A stretch of 64,000 bases of DNA from Escherichia coli (lineage in GTDB: Bacteria > Pseudomonadota > Gammaproteobacteria > Enterobacterales > Enterobacteriaceae). Both the position numbers and the translations under genes were made by a program. Shown here piece after piece: positions 3,126-31,759 of this stretch; the stretch's first letter is position 1; each line of letters opens with the position of its first letter. A model generated the notes under the pieces. The model ran no database searches. It saw nothing but the letters and a program-made list of their open reading frames with translations, and was not told the DNA's origin. The stretch lies in NCBI RefSeq assembly GCF_030013205.1, contig NZ_CP122648.1. The stretch is one strand, 5' to 3'.

Positions 3126-4172
3126 ATGACGCAATTTAATCCCGTTGATCATCCACATCGCCGCTACAACCCGCTCACCGGGCAATGGATTCTGGTTTCA
3201 CCGCACCGCGCTAAGCGCCCCTGGCAGGGGGCGCAGGAAACGCCAGCCAAACAGGTGTTACCTGCGCACGATCCAGATTGCTTCCTCTGCGCAGGTAATG
3301 TGCGGGTGACAGGCGATAAAAACCCCGATTACACCGGGACTTACGTTTTCACTAATGACTTTGCGGCCTTGATGTCTGACACGCCAGATGCGCCAGAAAG
3401 CAACGATCCGCTGATGCGTTGCCAGAGCGCGCGCGGTACCAGCCGGGTGATCTGCTTTTCACCGGATCACAGTAAAACGTTGCCAGAACTCAGCGTTGCG
3501 GCATTGACGGAAATCGTCAAAACCTGGCAGGAGCAAACCGCAGAACTGGGGAAAACATACCCATGGGTGCAGGTCTTTGAAAACAAAGGTGCGGCGATGG
3601 GCTGCTCTAACCCGCATCCGCACGGACAGATTTGGGCAAATAGCTTCCTGCCTAACGAAGCTGAGCGCGAAGACCGCCTGCAAAAAGAATATTTTGCCGA
3701 ACAGAAATCACCAATGCTGGTGGATTATGTTCAGCGCGAGCTGGCAGACGGTAGCCGTACCGTTGTCGAAACCGAACACTGGTTAGCCGTCGTGCCTTAC
3801 TGGGCTGCCTGGCCGTTCGAAACGCTACTGCTGCCCAAAGCCCACGTTTTACGGATCACCGATTTGACCGACGCCCAGCGCAGCGATTTGGCACTGGCGT
3901 TGAAAAAGCTGACCAGTCGTTATGACAACCTCTTCCAGTGCTCCTTCCCCTACTCTATGGGCTGGCACGGCGCGCCATTTAATGGCGAAGAGAATCAACA
4001 CTGGCAGCTGCACGCGCACTTTTATCCGCCTCTGTTGCGCTCCGCCACCGTACGTAAATTTATGGTTGGTTATGAAATGCTGGCAGAGACCCAGCGAGAC
4101 CTGACCGCAGAACAGGCAGCAGAGCGTTTGCGCGCAGTCAGCGATATCCATTTTCGCGAATCCGGAGTGTAA
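3126..4172 (+). CDS. galT: Galactose-1-phosphate uridylyltransferase
   Basis: 348-aa ORF with HPH active-site motif (CSNPHPHGQ); matches recalled GalT. Confidence 0.95.
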
Positions 4173-20579: not shown

Positions 20580-22148
20580 TTAGCGTGCCGGCTGAGTAGT
20601 CGTGGAAGACTGCTCAAAGTGATAGCGACCGGTTTTCAGGCTGCTTGGGCCGAGGCGTGCATACTTGAACATTAAGAACAATTCTGCCACCAGGAACAGG
20701 GTATACAGGCCGCAAATCAGCACCATTGAGAAGATGAGATCGCCTGCGGTCAGTGACGAGTTCGCCACAGCTGTCGGCAGCACTTCACCGATAGCCCACG
20801 GTTGGCGGCCATATTCAGCCACGAACCAGCCCGCTTCTACAGCAATCCACGGCAGCGGAATACCGTACAGCGCGGCGCGCAGCAGCCATTTTTTCTCGCC
20901 AATGCGGTTGCGGATGACACTCCAGAAAGAGAGCGCGATGATTGCCAGCAGCAGGAAGCCACACGCCACCATGATACGGAACGCGAAGTACAGCGGCGCT
21001 ACACGCGGAATGGAGTCTTTGGTTGCCTGTTGAATCTGCGCTTCAGTCGCATCCGCCACGTTTGGCGTATAGCGTTTCAGCAGCAGACCGTAACCGAGGT
21101 CTTTCTTCATGCTATTGAACTGGTCACGAACCGCCTGGTCGGTAGAACCAGAACGCAGTTGTTCGAGCAGAGAGTACGCCTTCATCCCGTTACGAATGCG
21201 TTCTTCATGCTGCACCATCAGCTCTTTCAGGCCGATAACCGGGGTATCCACGGAACGCGTTGCAATGATGCCCAGTGCGTAAGGGATCTGGATTGCAAAT
21301 TTGTTCGTCTCCTCTTCCTGATCAGGAATGCCGAACAGAGTAAAGGCAGCAGGTGCAGGTTGCGTTTCCCACTCGGCTTCAATAGCAGCCAGTTTGGTTT
21401 TCTGCACGTCGCCCATTTCGTAACCAGATTCATCACCCAGAACAATAACAGACAGAACGGCAGCCATACCGAAGCTGGCAGCGATAGCAAAGGAGCGTTT
21501 AGCGAAGGCGAAGTCACGACCTTTCAGCATATACCATGCGCTGATACCGAGGATGAACATCGCGCCAGTCACATAACCAGAGGCTACAGTGTGAACGAAT
21601 TTCACCTGAGCAACCGGGTTAAGCACCAGCTCGGAGAAGCTCACCATCTCCATACGCATAGTTTCAAAGTTGAAATCGGATGCGATTGGGTTTTGCATCC
21701 AGCCGTTCGCAACCAGAATCCACAGTGCGGACAGGTTTGAACCGAGCGCCACCAGCCAGGTGACACACATATGCTGAACTTTACCCAGACGATCCCAACC
21801 GAAGAAGAACAGACCTACAAAGGTGGATTCGAGGAAGAAGGCCATCAGACCTTCGATTGCCAGCGGCGCACCGAAGATATCCCCTACATAGTGGGAATAG
21901 TAAGACCAGTTAGTCCCGAACTGGAACTCCATGGTCAGACCGGTAGCCACACCCAGAGCGAAGTTGATACCAAACAACTTGCCCCAGAACTTGGTCATAT
22001 CTTTATAAATCTGTTTGCCGGAAAGGACGTAGACCGTTTCCATAATGGCCAGCAGGAACGCCATACCGAGCGTCAGTGGCACAAAAAGGAAGTGGTACAT
22101 CGCGGTCAAGGCAAACTGTAAGCGCGACAGTTCGACTATATCTAACAT
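20580..22148 (-). CDS. cydA: Cytochrome bd-I ubiquinol oxidase subunit I
   Basis: ORF 20580..22151 (MMLDIV...); matches CydA, start at the second Met. Confidence 0.95.
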
Positions 22149-22151
22149 CAT

Positions 22152-22950
22152 GACTCCTTGCTCATCGCATGAAGACTCCGAGAGTGAACCCCGTTAGAAA
22201 GGGTCACACGCATGCCCCAATACAAAATTATTTGCTCGCCTCTATCGTTGCCATTTCATCAAAAGAGGAAAAGACAATGATAAAAAAGTTACAAATATGT
22301 TAATGAATAAACCAAATTGATCCCGTAATTATATTACGCCGCAAAATCCTTACAATAAACAGGTTTTTATTGAGCAAATTTGCATTTTTCGACAGTGATC
22401 AATTTATAGCGAAATTGTCACGATCTCACCAATTTGATCTACGACAATTTATCGTGTTTTGCAGATTTTTTTCAAGAATTAAAAATTGATTTATATCAAA
22501 ACCAACCAAATATGTTAATTATGTATAAACCATAGATCATTGGTGATTTTATTGTTAATTTATTGTGAAATATTTATGCAACACAATTATTACAATGAAA
22601 AGGTATAGATAAAAAACCAGTGTTTTATTTAACAGAACCGCCTTATCCACTTTTTATAATACCAATTGATTAGATTAGCCAATTTGTTGCTATTTTACAT
22701 AACATATTTTTATCAAAGTTAATTGATTGTTGCGTTTATGAGCACCGGCCGTAAGCCCGTTATGTTATTGTTTCATTAGTAATAATCACTTAAATGTATC
22801 GATGAAACAGGTATGACTTAGCGGGAGTGATTGTTTCTGAGTGAACAGAGACCACTTTCGCCTGATAAATGAAAAATGAGCGATTTTTGCAAGTTAGTTT
22901 TTCTATAGCCGAGTACGCTCAGCGCCTCGCTTGATTACAATGAGGTTGCT
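22152..22950 (-). promoter_or_regulatory. Long AT-rich cydAB regulatory region
   Basis: About 800 bp AT-rich non-coding DNA upstream of cydA (a 60-bp sample at 22501-22560 has 14/60 G+C); contains FNR-like palindromes. Confidence 0.7.
22486..22499. promoter_or_regulatory. FNR-type binding site (perfect TTGAT-N4-ATCAA)
   Basis: ttgatttatatcaa matches the FNR consensus exactly; a second imperfect site ttgatctacgacaa at 22434-22447 lies 52 bp away. Confidence 0.5.
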
Positions 22951-22953
22951 GCT

Positions 22954-23898
22954 ATGAGTCCTGATAATATCAGTTCTGCTGTCAATCGCTTCTCAGGTTG
23001 GCCATCTAATGATCCTCTAAAAACAGATAAAGAATCAATGACATCACCCATGACTGTGCAGGTAATAAAGATGATTGCCGCCATCCTTGACCCACATCGG
23101 ATAGTCGTTGGAATCGATACACTTTATACAACGCAGCGCGAAACATTTACCTCAGAGAGTCAACAGCTCATTGAATCAGCATTGCAAACACTTCATGTGA
23201 TGAATTTAAATAACCTGGAAACAAATCTCGATGAGGAAGGTCACTATCTGGCTTTTGGATATAACGTTGACACTCCTGACAGAATAACCGTTTCTGCTTA
23301 TAATGAAAAAAAGCCTGGCTGCTATGGCCAATGTCTTTTAATACAGGATGACGAAACAGACTTATTTAACCTGATAAAAGTTAAAATTTTTGAAGCCAGA
23401 CATAATTATGTCGCTCAATTGATGAGCGATCCGGAATTTATGTTCAAATTTAGTTATAGCGCTCAACAAAATAGATTAGAACCTCATCTTCTGGTTCCCA
23501 CTTATTTCCCTCTAAAAACAAACGAACCGGTTACGCAAGAGGATGTACTGTTACTTTATCGTTTCTTTAAAATGGATGGTGATTTTAATATATTAACATC
23601 AGATGAATACATGAGCATCATGACACCTCTGATGAAGTGTGAGCGCAGCATCCACGACCACAACAGGTATGTGACGGGCAAAGATACCCTTCTTCTGGAC
23701 TATCCTCCTTCTGGTAACCAGATATATTTCCATATTTTTCCTGACGAATCAGCAACACTAGTCCTTTATTTTTCAAACAATGACATTGAATGTTTCGTCT
23801 TTGAAAGAGATATTCCGAGCCAGTATCGCTTTTTCAAAATGTTTACCAATCTGGCACTGGTTATTGATCAGTTAACCGATGCCAATCAAATACTTTAA
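22954..23898 (+). CDS. Hypothetical protein (314 aa), low-GC orphan, no recognisable family
   Basis: Uninterrupted ORF with GAGG RBS 8 nt upstream of the ATG; AT-rich codon usage (spot counts 25/60 and 18/60 G+C) unlike neighbouring core genes. Confidence 0.6.
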   Translation: MSPDNISSAVNRFSGWPSNDPLKTDKESMTSPMTVQVIKMIAAILDPHRIVVGIDTLYTTQRETFTSESQQLIESALQTLHVMNLNNLETNLDEEGHYLAFGYNVDTPDRITVSAYNEKKPGCYGQCLLIQDDETDLFNLIKVKIFEARHNYVAQLMSDPEFMFKFSYSAQQNRLEPHLLVPTYFPLKTNEPVTQEDVLLLYRFFKMDGDFNILTSDEYMSIMTPLMKCERSIHDHNRYVTGKDTLLLDYPPSGNQIYFHIFPDESATLVLYFSNNDIECFVFERDIPSQYRFFKMFTNLALVIDQLTDANQIL

Positions 23899-23978
23899 TT
23901 TTTATATATTCCCTGTGGCAAATATTGCTAAACAATGCCCGGGGATTAATTTTTATTACTCACGGAAAGATTTAAATA

Positions 23979-24401
23979 ATGATCCCATCTCAAATCTCTT
24001 TCAACACCCTTCCTGTCAATGCAACATACGCTTCAGAGACAACAGTTGACACACAAAAATTCTCTGACATCCTCTACTCAGCGGGGTGTTCCCTAAAGGA
24101 TCTGGCTTATCTGAGCAGATGTCTGGCATCAATACATCCGACTATCGCCAAAAACATTTATGAAACAGAAAATCTCAGCGATCAAAAATTACTACATATT
24201 GATTGCCGTAGTACAAATGAAATCAAGATAAATATCTTTTTTGGTCAACAACGAGAAGGATTAATTGAAATTAGTTCTGACACAGTCATTTTTTCGATAC
24301 TGTCTTCATTGATTGACTCCACCATTTCTAAATTTCAACACCAAAACCCCGTTAACGGTTCTGTAAATCCTGACCTATTGTATGAGGATTATACTGATTA
24401 A
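23979..24401 (+). CDS. Hypothetical protein (140 aa), low-GC orphan, no recognisable family
   Basis: ORF 80 bp downstream of the 314-aa ORF on the same strand, similar composition; polar Ser/Thr/Ile/Asn/Pro-rich N-terminus. Confidence 0.5.
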   Translation: MIPSQISFNTLPVNATYASETTVDTQKFSDILYSAGCSLKDLAYLSRCLASIHPTIAKNIYETENLSDQKLLHIDCRSTNEIKINIFFGQQREGLIEISSDTVIFSILSSLIDSTISKFQHQNPVNGSVNPDLLYEDYTD

Positions 24402-24948
24402 ATCCCTCCTGTCGCGAAAAATGGCCTGCGTTATTGCCAGACGTAATAAAACTTTTGATTAACGTTTCTCGTACTGGTAGCACCTTCATGTACTTTTCTT
24501 TTTTACGAAAAATCAAAAGAGCTAACAAAGGTCATAATTCGCATGAATCATTAATTATTTGTTATTTTCAACATTATTTTTACATTAAGCAGAGATGAAT
24601 TGCTGTGAAATTCGACTTAACTTTTATGAAATGCATTTACTCATGGCTAAAGCCACGTCACAAAAATGCAAATTAGAAGTTGATCACAATTATCTCAATA
24701 CATCAAATCAAGTTAATTTTAAAAATTTAACATTCATGACATCAGTTGACATAACACACTGAATTAAAATGAGAATTTGAAAACACACTTTAAACAATCA
24801 TTTCCCGAAAGACATTTTGAAAATAGATCAATTGCAACATTACGGTCAGATAAAGACACTCCTGTGATATTAAACCTGTGCCGTTATGAACGGCCATAAA
24901 TACGACGTGTGTAACTTATTTTACTCTCTGTCTTACAAAGGATTACCC
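24402..24948 (+). promoter_or_regulatory. AT-rich leader / probable promoter region of the glutamate mutase operon
   Basis: 547 bp of AT-rich non-coding DNA directly upstream of the first operon gene; no ORF of 60 aa or more. Confidence 0.4.
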
Positions 24949-25398
24949 ATGAAGAAAGCAACACTTGTGATTGGCGTTATTGGCGCGGACTGCCATGCAG
25001 TAGGCAATAAAGTTCTGGACCGCGTTTTTAGCAACCATGGCTTCAGAGTCATTAATCTGGGCGTAATGGTCAGCCAGGACGAATATATTGATGCGGCCAT
25101 TGAAACTGGCGCTGACGCGATTGTCGTCTCCTCTATCTATGGGCATGGCGATATCGATTGTCTGGGCATGCGCGAACGCTGCATTGAGCGTGGGCTGGGT
25201 AACATCCTGCTCTATGTGGGCGGTAACCTGGTGGTCGGAAAACATGACTTCGCTGACGTGGAAACCAAGTTCAAAGAGATGGGATTTGATCGCGTCTTTT
25301 CCCCAAGTCATGACTTAGAAGATGTTTGTCAGCTGATGGCCCACGATATCAACCAACGTCATGACGTTGATACTCGCATTCTTGAAGAGGCAATCTGA
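24949..25398 (+). CDS. Glutamate mutase sigma (S) subunit, B12-binding (methylaspartate mutase small subunit)
   Basis: Start chosen at [21 protein letters not shown] (AAGGA RBS upstream); DxHxxG cobalamin-binding motif; aligns by eye with recalled Clostridium GlmS/MutS. Confidence 0.85.
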
Positions 25399-30865: not shown

Positions 30866-31061
30866 AACAGTCAATTGTCTCACTGGCGCAAGTCATTCGT
30901 TCGAAAAATGCCGGACCTTACGAACTGGTTTTAGATATTTTATTTAAAACCAAAGAAAACTATGAGCGAGTCAAATCATCAGGGCAATTAACCCCAGAAC
31001 TGATTGGGTGATGCTGCCAACTTACTGATTTAGTGTATGATGGTGTTTTTGAGGTGCTCCA

Positions 31062-31337
31062 GTGGCTTCTGTTTCTATCAGCTGTCCCTCCTGTTCAGCT
31101 ACTGACGGGGTGGTGCGTAACGGCAAAAGCACCGCCGGACATCAGCGCTATCTCTGCTCTCACTGCCGTAAAACATGGCAACTACAGTTCACTTACGCCG
31201 CCTCTCAGCCCGGTACGCACCAGAAAATCATTGATATGGCCATGAATGGCGTCGGATGTCGCGCCAGTGCACGCATTATTGGCGTTGGCCTCAACACGAT
31301 TTTCCGCCACTTAAAAAACTCAGGCCGCAGTCGGTAA
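31062..31337 (+). CDS. insA: IS1 protein InsA
   Basis: 91-aa ORF with zinc-finger Cys residues (CPSCSA...CSHC). Confidence 0.9.
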
Positions 31338-31759
31338 CCTCGCGCATACAACCGGGCAGTGATGTGATTGTCTGCGCTGAAATGGACGAACAGTGGGGCT
31401 ACGTCGGTGCTAAATCACGTCAGCGCTGGCTGTTTTACGCGTATGACAGGATGCGGAGGACGGTTGTGGCGCACGTCTTCGGTGAACGCACTCTGGCCAC
31501 ACTGGAGCGTCTTCTGAGCCTGCTGTCGGCCTTTGAGGTCGTGGTATGGATGACGGATGGCTGGCCGCTGTATGAATCACGCCTGAAGGGAAAGCTGCAC
31601 GTTATCAGCAAGCGTTATACTCAGCGCATTGAGCGGCATAACCTGAATCTGAGACAACATCTGGCAAGGCTGGGACGGAAGTCACTGTCGTTCTCAAAAT
31701 CGGTGGAGCTGCATGACAAGGTCATCGGGCATTATCTGAACATAAAACACTATCAGTAA
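31256..31759 (+). CDS. insB: IS1 InsB frame (expressed as InsAB' transposase by -1 frameshift)
   Basis: 167-aa ORF in the -1 frame relative to insA; slippery A-run (ttaaaaaactc) at about 31311-31321. Confidence 0.9.

Follow-up and report, generated by a model that had tools for sequence, protein, structure and literature searches.

The noncoding gap in front of glmS, in the operon glmS-glmL-glmE-mal for the B12-dependent fermentation of glutamate, was analyzed in a 64,000-nucleotide stretch of the Escherichia coli chromosome (NCBI RefSeq assembly GCF_030013205.1, contig NZ_CP122648.1), referred to here as the window. With a probability of about 60%, the proximal ∼290 bp of this gap form an activator-dependent sigma-70 promoter with a LysR-type operator and phased upstream sites and contain no RNA element. 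In the proposed mechanism, transcription would start near position 24867 from a weak TTGCAA-17 nt-GACACT promoter, which probably needs an activator. A LysR-type regulator would bind at 24799-24835, overlapping the -35 element. Two further elements, a conserved site A at about -187 and an IHF-like site at about -109, lie in helical phase with this operator and could form a bent or looped nucleoprotein complex with it, adding a global input, probably catabolite control. The promoter-operator region appears to have travelled with the operon through the Enterobacterales. The start site, the assignment of proteins to the sites, and the looping are what we infer from conservation.

The control region is an uncharacterized instance of a conventional, familiar bacterial kind; its interest lies in its unusually sharp conservation, and the mechanism itself is unsurprising to a specialist in transcription. 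The glm cluster is present in O157:H7 and in many opportunistic Enterobacterales. A concrete promoter, operator, and candidate regulator make the induction of this pathogen-associated operon directly testable.

For comparison, 80 loci encoding GlmS relatives were fetched and their upstream DNA was compared. Counts out of 29 refer to a nonredundant set of Enterobacterales glmS upstream regions from Escherichia, Klebsiella, Citrobacter, Salmonella, Enterobacter, Lelliottia, Pluralibacter, Buttiauxella, Pseudescherichia, Yersinia, Morganella, Hafnia, Budvicia, and Yokenella. Nearly every Enterobacterales locus shows a long gap before glmS, ranging from about 300 to >1200 bp, with a GC content near 30%. 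Most of this DNA is unalignable between genera, and four conserved islands stand out: the promoter, the operator, the IHF-like core, and site A.

Predicted promoter and operator

The -10 element keeps the A at -11 and the T at -7 in 29/29 sequences and the A at -9 in 28/29, following the pattern nA(c)A(c/t)T. It is separated from the -35 element by exactly 17 nt throughout the set, and the sequence of this spacer varies freely. This succession of conserved, variable, and conserved segments at a fixed distance identifies a sigma-70 promoter. The hexamers fall within the 16 to 18 nt expected for this class and carry its key bases (TTG, A-11, and T-7). A start near 24867 would give a predicted 5' untranslated region (5'UTR) of about 82 nt.

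Three other readings of the promoter are rejected. The nearby TATTAA motif does not qualify as the -10 element, as it has no T at -7 and is limited to most Enterobacteriaceae; its absence at that offset in Yersinia, Morganella, and Yokenella shows that it is not a universal -10 element. Candidate roles for this motif are the transcript start or an extra operator. A sigma-54 promoter is dismissed by inspection because no GG-N10-GC is present, and an extended -10 element is likewise dismissed by inspection.

The operator contains a 21-nt block, TTTTGAAAATAGATCAATTGC, at 24815-24835, which is found with 0 to 1 mismatches in all 41 of the 41 Enterobacteriaceae-type loci. Outside this group, Yersinia, Hafnia, and Budvicia keep the core ATCAATTG together with the upstream motifs CAAGA and CTGA.AATA in the arrangement TTTT.CAAGA...CTGA.AATA.ATCAATTG, and the operators of Morganella and Yokenella retain CAAG and ATCAATTG without CTGA.AATA. 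Many Enterobacteriaceae operators show a T-N11-A dyad, TATTTTGAAAATA, which is disrupted in Klebsiella and Buttiauxella.

Within E. coli, the 41-mer covering the operator (24798-24838) is identical in 1131 of the 1135 genomes carrying the gap, compared to 507, 491, and 668 genomes (43-59%) for control 41-mers from the gap. Among five divergent E. coli alleles, 20-26% of the columns vary in 24402-24797, versus 4% in 24798-24948. In every comparison made, the latter segment is conserved above the coding DNA of glmS and glmL: it shows 97.4% identity with Escherichia sp. MOD1-EC7003, against 85.5-89.1% for the adjacent coding DNA, and 100% identity with O157, against 97-98%. A segment that surpasses coding DNA in this way does not merely reflect a low diversity of the island.

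Such low diversity of a recently spread island, with the gap acting as an H-NS-coated, AT-rich spacer devoid of specific elements, is barely credible as an explanation of the conservation. It would fit the AT-rich, A-tract-rich, and horizontally mobile context as well as the behavior of O157:H7 strain ATCC 700728, in which methylaspartate ammonia-lyase activity was undetected under all conditions tried, with or without oxygen, glutamate, and cobalamins (PMC4682846). It does not account for a core more conserved than the adjacent coding sequence, nor for an operator block that does not vary between genera with 10-15% divergent GlmS proteins and unalignable flanking noncoding DNA. As a complete explanation, it is refuted. 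H-NS may bind in addition, and the AT-rich, A-tract-rich setting makes the region a plausible H-NS target.

The LysR-type regulator of the cluster

The candidate for binding the operator is encoded in the cluster itself. The cluster ends with a minus-strand gene for a LysR-family regulator (35802-36707), which is convergent with cobO in E. coli and is genetically linked to the glm operon. Its best-scoring model is GcvA, with 221.8 bits in NCBIfam and a match to GcvA in the PDB at E = 9e-43. Since the NCBIfam score remains under the cutoff of 288 bits, the protein is a paralogue of GcvA and not GcvA itself. Its orthologues, with 57-99% identity, come from taxa that also have the glm cluster. 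In two cases (L037 and L040), the longest contig listed for the orthologue is exactly as long as the one bearing glmS, so that the two genes probably share a contig.

Two lineages connect the regulator gene with the operator. In Yokenella, the gene is divergent from an operon encoding FecCD, ABC, TonB-dependent receptor, and binding-protein components, which is situated directly upstream of glmS (L086, 2273-2500; L054, 1-4000). The divergent promoter carries a second copy of the operator, TCAAGTTGTCTTCA..TTTT.TCAATTGC, followed by TTGCCT-17 nt-TATATA. The two Yokenella copies are identical at 14/14 positions of TCAAGTTGTCTTCA and share TCAATTGC. The transporter operon probably serves corrinoid uptake, so that this operator copy would tie cofactor transport and glutamate fermentation into one regulon. 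In Yersinia, where the regulator gene is likewise divergent from the upstream operon, the intergenic region between the regulator gene and fumD contains GCAGATAGAACAATTGC followed by TTGCTT-16 nt-AATAAT. This operator-related element at the fumD promoter is conserved in five species.

From these sequence relationships, the operator is most likely bound by the GcvA-like LysR regulator of the cluster, at odds somewhat better than even. The LysR dependence put forward in the original prediction thus keeps its place, with this protein as the best candidate for the main operator.

Phased upstream sites

Site A contains GATCACAA, which nearly every Enterobacterales glmS upstream region shares; a few genera show altered first bases, e.g., GCTCACAA or TATCACAA. 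Its distance from the operator, measured from start to start, is 136 bp in the window, 135-138 bp in most Enterobacteriaceae, and up to 141 bp in two Citrobacter isolates, giving an overall range of 135-141 bp. In Yersinia, Morganella, and Budvicia, this distance is 31 bp longer, which corresponds to ∼three helical turns. There, 21 bp of the extension fall between the operator and the IHF-like core and 10 bp between this core and site A, so that the shifts of 10, 21, and 31 bp are all close to whole helical turns.

The IHF-like core keeps its strand as well as its position. On the minus strand, WATCAANNNNTTR is offset from ATCAATTG by -74 to -77 in Enterobacteriaceae and Yokenella and by -96 to -97 in the Yersinia group. 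The best IHF-like match has 0 to 1 mismatches in 20 of the 29 sequences, 18 of which place it on the minus strand at the offset of their lineage; the mean number of mismatches is 1.07, compared to 1.89 in shuffled sequences. Alignment A1 shows no variation in the TG at 24760-24761.

CRP-like sites of good-to-perfect quality are seen in Yersinia, Hafnia, and Yokenella. The position of the center of site A, about -186.5, is neither that of a class I nor that of a class II CRP site, and its TCACA is conserved across genera. Upstream of site A, many genera have another CRP-like site, of which E. coli contains a possible degenerate remnant (24604-24619), in which TGTGA reads AGTGA in other alleles. 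Its offset of -223 from ATCAATTG equals that of a conserved CGTTAC-N5-TCACA in Citrobacter amalonaticus and C. sedlakii, and the equivalent site of Klebsiella, Salmonella, and Buttiauxella lies 11-14 bp further upstream (-234 to -237). At an analogous position, the site of Yersinia reads TATGA-N6-TCACA, with one mismatch, as in Hafnia and Salmonella arizonae; that of Yokenella is a perfect TGTGA-N6-TCACA.

The likeness of site A to a CRP site also suggests a second, CRP-dependent promoter upstream, with TAACAT at about 24727-24732 as its -10 element and a start near 24740, which would put site A at about -60. In that case, a ∼210-nt transcribed leader would include both the operator and the proximal promoter, and the bound regulator would act there as a roadblock or repressor. 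A semiconserved TA..A., seen in many genera about 40 nt after TCACA, is consistent with this arrangement. It is nevertheless improbable, as the putative -10 element is poorly conserved, the strict phasing between site A and the operator is left unexplained, and the TTG-17 nt-nAnAnT pattern is better explained by a promoter at 24832-24860.

A more speculative role for the phased pair, namely a looped, Dam-methylation-sensitive on/off switch comparable to that of the LysR-type OxyR and Dam at agn43, is suggested by analogy. The sequence GATC occurs in the invariant operator and in site A of most, but not all, Enterobacteriaceae, and the two sites are kept ∼13 helical turns apart, with the IHF-like bend located between them. 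This role is a long shot; if it applied, the operon would be silent in most cells, which would explain the absent laboratory activity in O157.

Anaerobic control through FNR, which the original prediction had listed, does not find a conserved site. No TTGAT-N4-ATCAA occurs near -41.5, and the sole match in the gap (24680-24693, at about -180) has 2 mismatches, is of a kind expected by chance, and has a right half that is not conserved. As a positive control, the same comparison recovers a perfect FNR consensus, TTGATTTATATCAA, at 22486-22499. This site is located in the long AT-rich DNA upstream of cydA, the expected control region of cydAB.

Table 1. Elements identified in the gap upstream of glmS, with positions in the window and offsets relative to the predicted transcription start
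Feature	Position	Strand	Remarks
Distal fast-evolving part of the gap	24402-24657		Joins the E. coli-specific two-ORF module to the ancestral glm regulatory region
Distal CRP-like remnant, TGTGAAATTCGACTTA	24604-24619	+	3 mismatches; low confidence
Site A, GATCACAA (24682-24689) inside the CRP-like 16-mer TTAGAAGTTGATCACA (24673-24688)	24673-24689	+	Center at about -186.5
Site C, IHF-consensus-like core ATTCAGTGTGTTA	24752-24764	-	Center at about -109; fixed offset and strand
Operator, CATTTCCCGAAAGACATTTTGAAAATAGATCAATTGC	24799-24835	+	37 bp, -68 to -32; overlaps the -35 element; holds the near-invariant 21-nt block
Predicted sigma-70 -35 element, TTGCAA	24832-24837	+	TTG in 29/29, always 17 nt before the -10 element
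Predicted weak -10 element, GACACT	24855-24860	+	3/6 matches to TATAAT
Predicted transcription start region	24866-24869	+	Placed 6-9 nt after the conserved -10 element
TATTAA motif	24868-24873	+	ATTAA at least 90% conserved in alignment A1; most Enterobacteriaceae only
5'-proximal hairpin, GCCGTT/AACGGC stem with ATG loop	24877-24896	+	In the predicted 5'UTR; -8.2 kcal/mol, local z score -2.9
Shine-Dalgarno sequence AAGGA (24938-24942) and glmS start codon	24938-24951	+	(A/G)AGGATTACCC-ATG context kept in most genera

Evidence against the model and the global-regulator alternative

Several observations weigh against an activator-dependent promoter controlled by the regulator of the cluster. 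At the promoter, the -10 element agrees with the consensus at only 3/6 positions, and a simple promoter scan, which lists only -10 elements with at least 4/6 matches, omits it. Neither pathway names nor O157 locus tags led to published data on regulation or transcription starts at the locus. The entries listed in the EDL933 Cappable-seq supplement include none at 8529xx-8534xx; the growth conditions stated there comprise no anaerobic step. The upstream sites of E. coli are unremarkable as single matches: site A deviates from the CRP consensus at 2 positions, a chance-level match (26 such sites in the window versus 26.9 expected), and the IHF-like core of E. coli itself has 2 mismatches, also at chance level. 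In E. coli, Salmonella, and Enterobacter, the regulator gene lies about 11 kb from the operon, is not divergent from it, and has no operator copy upstream. E. coli has only an imperfect form of the operator dyad TATTTTGAAAATA (CATTTT...) and Yersinia has none, and neither CTAAT nor ATTAG occurs in 24799-24835, which leaves the operator without a GcvA box, defined as T-N11-A containing 5'-CTAAT-3' (PMC3658693). With no copy at the regulator promoter in these three genera and no CTAAT, the pairing of regulator and operator is something that we infer. Finally, the 21 invariant nucleotides exceed the needs of one LysR dimer, so that other or additional proteins may bind there.

The last point, together with the missing operator copy at the promoter of the regulator, is compatible with an alternative in which a global regulator or two overlapping proteins occupy the invariant block and the LysR-type protein acts elsewhere or on other genes. 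Candidates are a member of the CRP/FNR family, ArgR, IHF (ATCAA-TTGC-TT), and H-NS (similar to TCGATAAATT). Compared with the consensus sequences, the block contains TTGA-N7-TCAA, an IHF-like core ATCAA-N4-TT, and AGATCAATT, which resembles the H-NS motif. The FNR and CRP readings of the block are rejected, as the half-sites TTGA and TCAA are spaced by N7, whereas both proteins require N6. A blastn search of 5,426 E. coli genomes, of limited sensitivity for so short a query, detects no second copy of the block, and none is found elsewhere in the window; this argues against a global regulon. Operator-like copies occur only at promoters in or next to the cluster near the regulator gene, namely, those of Yokenella and Yersinia. 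The global-regulator alternative is considered unlikely, and the regulator of the cluster is retained as the preferred ligand of the operator.

Absence of a structured leader or small gene

The gap would be of a different nature if it were a long structured leader RNA, i.e., a cobalamin or other riboswitch, an attenuator, or a region encoding a leader peptide. The B12-dependent enzyme encoded by the operon, the length of the gap, and the hairpin at 24877-24896 would suit such a leader. Its likeness to loci with a cobalamin riboswitch (RF00174) is one of context only, consisting of an operon for an adenosylcobalamin-dependent mutase and a corrinoid adenosyltransferase; a match in sequence or structure is missing at any threshold, as is a conserved leader. 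A cmscan search of 23800-25300 against all Rfam families at E ≤ 10 gives only the chance eukaryotic matches SNORD2 and HOTAIR_2. At the gathering score, the window matches only tRNAs, RtT, and the cpoB thermometer, with nothing in the gap, and zero matches are obtained in 10 orthologous loci. The original prediction had seen no obvious cobalamin riboswitch by eye, and the Rfam/Infernal scan that it proposed agrees, for the gap and the 10 orthologous loci alike.

Folding does not exceed the level of shuffled sequences. Of five subregions folded, the distal part has a z score of -0.02, the predicted 5'UTR -0.8, the stretch from the operator to the ATG +0.5, and the upstream conserved part +0.9, and only the hairpin at 24877-24896 stands out locally. 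With z scores between -0.8 and +0.9 and a leader that is unalignable between genera, no conserved structured 5' leader is found. The predicted untranslated region after the promoter varies in length from 52 to about 250 nt across genera. Hairpins of unrelated sequence are found at the equivalent place, about 10 nt into the predicted transcript, in many but not all genera; over the 29 sequences, the mean z score at this position is -0.69, with 7/29 below -1.5, a weak tendency that is missing in several genera. In E. coli, the hairpin is followed by CATAAATACG and no U-tract, and it is therefore not a terminator. A scan of 23800-25300 detects 0 terminator-like sites, leaving neither a terminator nor an attenuator.

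In Citrobacter amalonaticus S646 (L013, about 3870-3985), an insertion of ∼110 bp with strong predicted structure extends the glmS 5'UTR to about 192 nt. This insertion resembles an enterobacterial intergenic repeat.

The original prediction had left room for a small ORF in the gap, and it correctly gave none of at least 60 amino acids. The largest are one of 55 amino acids (24595-24762) and one of 54 amino acids (24434-24598); both are rejected as genes, being interrupted by stops or frameshifts in O157, MOD1-EC7003, and MFDS1019527. Small ORFs that remain intact lie within DNA that is itself invariant, and the invariant block shows no codon-like wobble, so that no small protein or leader peptide is supported. 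The reading frame of glmS is open upstream as far as an ATG at 24886. This in-frame codon sits in the loop of the hairpin, and the surrounding stretch is unalignable between genera. The RefSeq start of glmS agrees with the ATG at 24949. A structured leader RNA is thus very improbable and largely refuted, and the idea of a gap that is mainly transcribed leader gives way to a promoter region with a short predicted 5'UTR and folding at shuffle level.

Relation to known systems

The predicted regulator, the proximal operator, and the distant sites most closely recall the gcvTHP operon of E. coli, where GcvA, a LysR-type protein, acts with Lrp and distal sites; GcvA is also the best-scoring model for the regulator described here. 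Wilson, Urbanowski and Stauffer reportedly located GcvA site 1 of gcvT at about -69 to -34 in 1995, with more sites ∼200 bp upstream, and are said to have placed a DNA-bending protein between the proximal and distal GcvA sites. The layout proposed for glmS matches this order, in that the bend site (about -109) separates a distal site (about -187) from a proximal operator (-68 to -32). In contrast to gcvTHP, the operator lacks CTAAT, the bend site looks like an IHF site and not an Lrp site, and the regulator gene is not adjacent in E. coli.

Classical LysR activator promoters, such as those of OxyR, CbnR, and BenM, contain a recognition site near -65 and an activation site overlapping the -35 element. 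The glmS region shares with them the weak sigma-70 promoter, the ∼37-bp block from -68 to -32, the linked regulator, and, in Yokenella, the divergent arrangement with the same operator. It differs in the location of the E. coli regulator gene, 11 kb away and convergent with cobO, and in the imperfect dyad.

In narGHJI-type promoters, bending by IHF lets a remote upstream activator reach the promoter; the narG promoter has FNR at -41.5, IHF near -110, and NarL near -200. The control region of glmS resembles that of narGHJI in having an IHF-like core (about -109) flanked by a proximal activator site and a conserved distal site near -190, and in lineage-specific spacing changes by whole helical turns (10, 21, and 31 bp). 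FNR sites and NarL heptamers are absent here, and the IHF-like core of E. coli has 2 mismatches.

Composition and origin of the gap

The gap comprises 547 bp of noncoding DNA between the stop codon TAA of the preceding ORF (24399-24401) and the glmS ATG at 24949, exactly as outlined in the original prediction. Its GC content of 32.2%, compared to 50.5% for the whole window, falls in the lowest 1% of 547-bp windows, and the only stretch of the window with comparable AT-richness is the region upstream of cydA. The prediction also described several inverted repeats and A-tracts. The A/T tracts are indeed enriched, with 33 of at least 4 nt versus 21.3 ± 3.4 in shuffled sequences; perfect inverted repeats with 6-nt arms are at chance level, with 8 versus 7.0 ± 3.4. 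The repeat finder reports only imperfect pairs for the gap, mostly far apart, and the hairpin at 24877-24896 is the sole G+C-rich one.

The gap sequence occurs in 1135 of 5426 complete E. coli genomes (∼1 in 5, including O157:H7) with 88-100% identity and has no annotation beneath it. Among a total of 1136 matches, 1 is a plasmid record and not a chromosome.

The two parts of the gap differ in origin. In the distal part, 24402-24657, 20-26% of the columns vary among the five E. coli alleles, and the control 41-mer from this part (24480-24520) is identical in just 491/1132 genomes. Homology to E. whittamii and Escherichia sp. E1V33 ends at ∼22794 on the cydA side and resumes at 24658, save for a 42-nt patch at 24543-24584. 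The DNA between these end points carries two low-GC ORFs at 22954-23898 (314 amino acids) and 23979-24401 (140 amino acids), neither of which has a significant match in Pfam, NCBIfam, PADLOC, or PHROGs. Homologues of the 314-amino-acid ORF are almost exclusively found in E. coli, and one genome devoid of the glm cluster (L083) has a copy with 65% identity in its cydA-sucD interval. The space between cydA and sucD looks like an insertion hotspot. These homology limits and the copy in a glm-less genome indicate that the first ∼255 bp are the junction beside an independent insertion. No conserved element is found in 24402-24657, nor is there a convincing terminator for the second ORF.

By sequence comparison, only 24658-24948 (∼290 bp) is ancestral to the glm locus. 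The expectation that the gap houses the promoter and regulatory sites of the operon is thus borne out by the conserved promoter-operator module, which the comparison assigns to the last ∼290 bp, and does not extend to the poorly conserved first ∼255 bp.

The glm cluster and its neighborhood

The gap lies in a variable island of the E. coli chromosome between cydA (20580-22151, minus strand) and sucD. The island starts with the two unannotatable ORFs and the gap, followed by glmS, glmL, glmE, and the gene for methylaspartate ammonia-lyase. Next are an AtuA-family gene, a DUF4387 gene, and the genes for a dicarboxylate/amino-acid symporter and the class I fumarase FumD, and then cobO and, on the opposite strand, the gene for the LysR-family regulator. 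Kronen and Berg described the glm cluster and characterized FumD (PMC4682846); their study, the sole functional one found, gives no data on promoters or regulation.

In Yersinia, Hafnia, Morganella, and Budvicia (L043, L050, L042, and L039), the glm operon is preceded not by cydA but by cobalamin/siroheme biosynthesis genes, which encode a uroporphyrinogen methyltransferase, a PduX-like kinase, and a CysG-like protein.

A decayed cluster is present in E. coli ST2747 (NZ_CP007394.1), the gap of which is 100% identical to that of the window. Here, glmS and glmL are partial, the genes from glmE through the AtuA-family gene are deleted, and frameshifts affect the symporter, fumD, and LysR genes, which suggests that the operon is dispensable in some lineages.

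Two further features lie within the cluster of the window. A complete 768-bp IS1 at 31007-31774 is inserted in the DUF4387 gene, with flanks that rejoin the O157 sequence with an 8-bp overlap; the insertion disrupts this gene and may have polar effects on the genes after it. Between the DUF4387 and symporter genes, a perfect palindrome with a 14-bp stem, GTAGATGCCTGAAT-CTCT-ATTCAGGCATCTAC, at 32039-32070 is followed by a T-rich stretch and is probably a terminator dividing the cluster into two transcription units.

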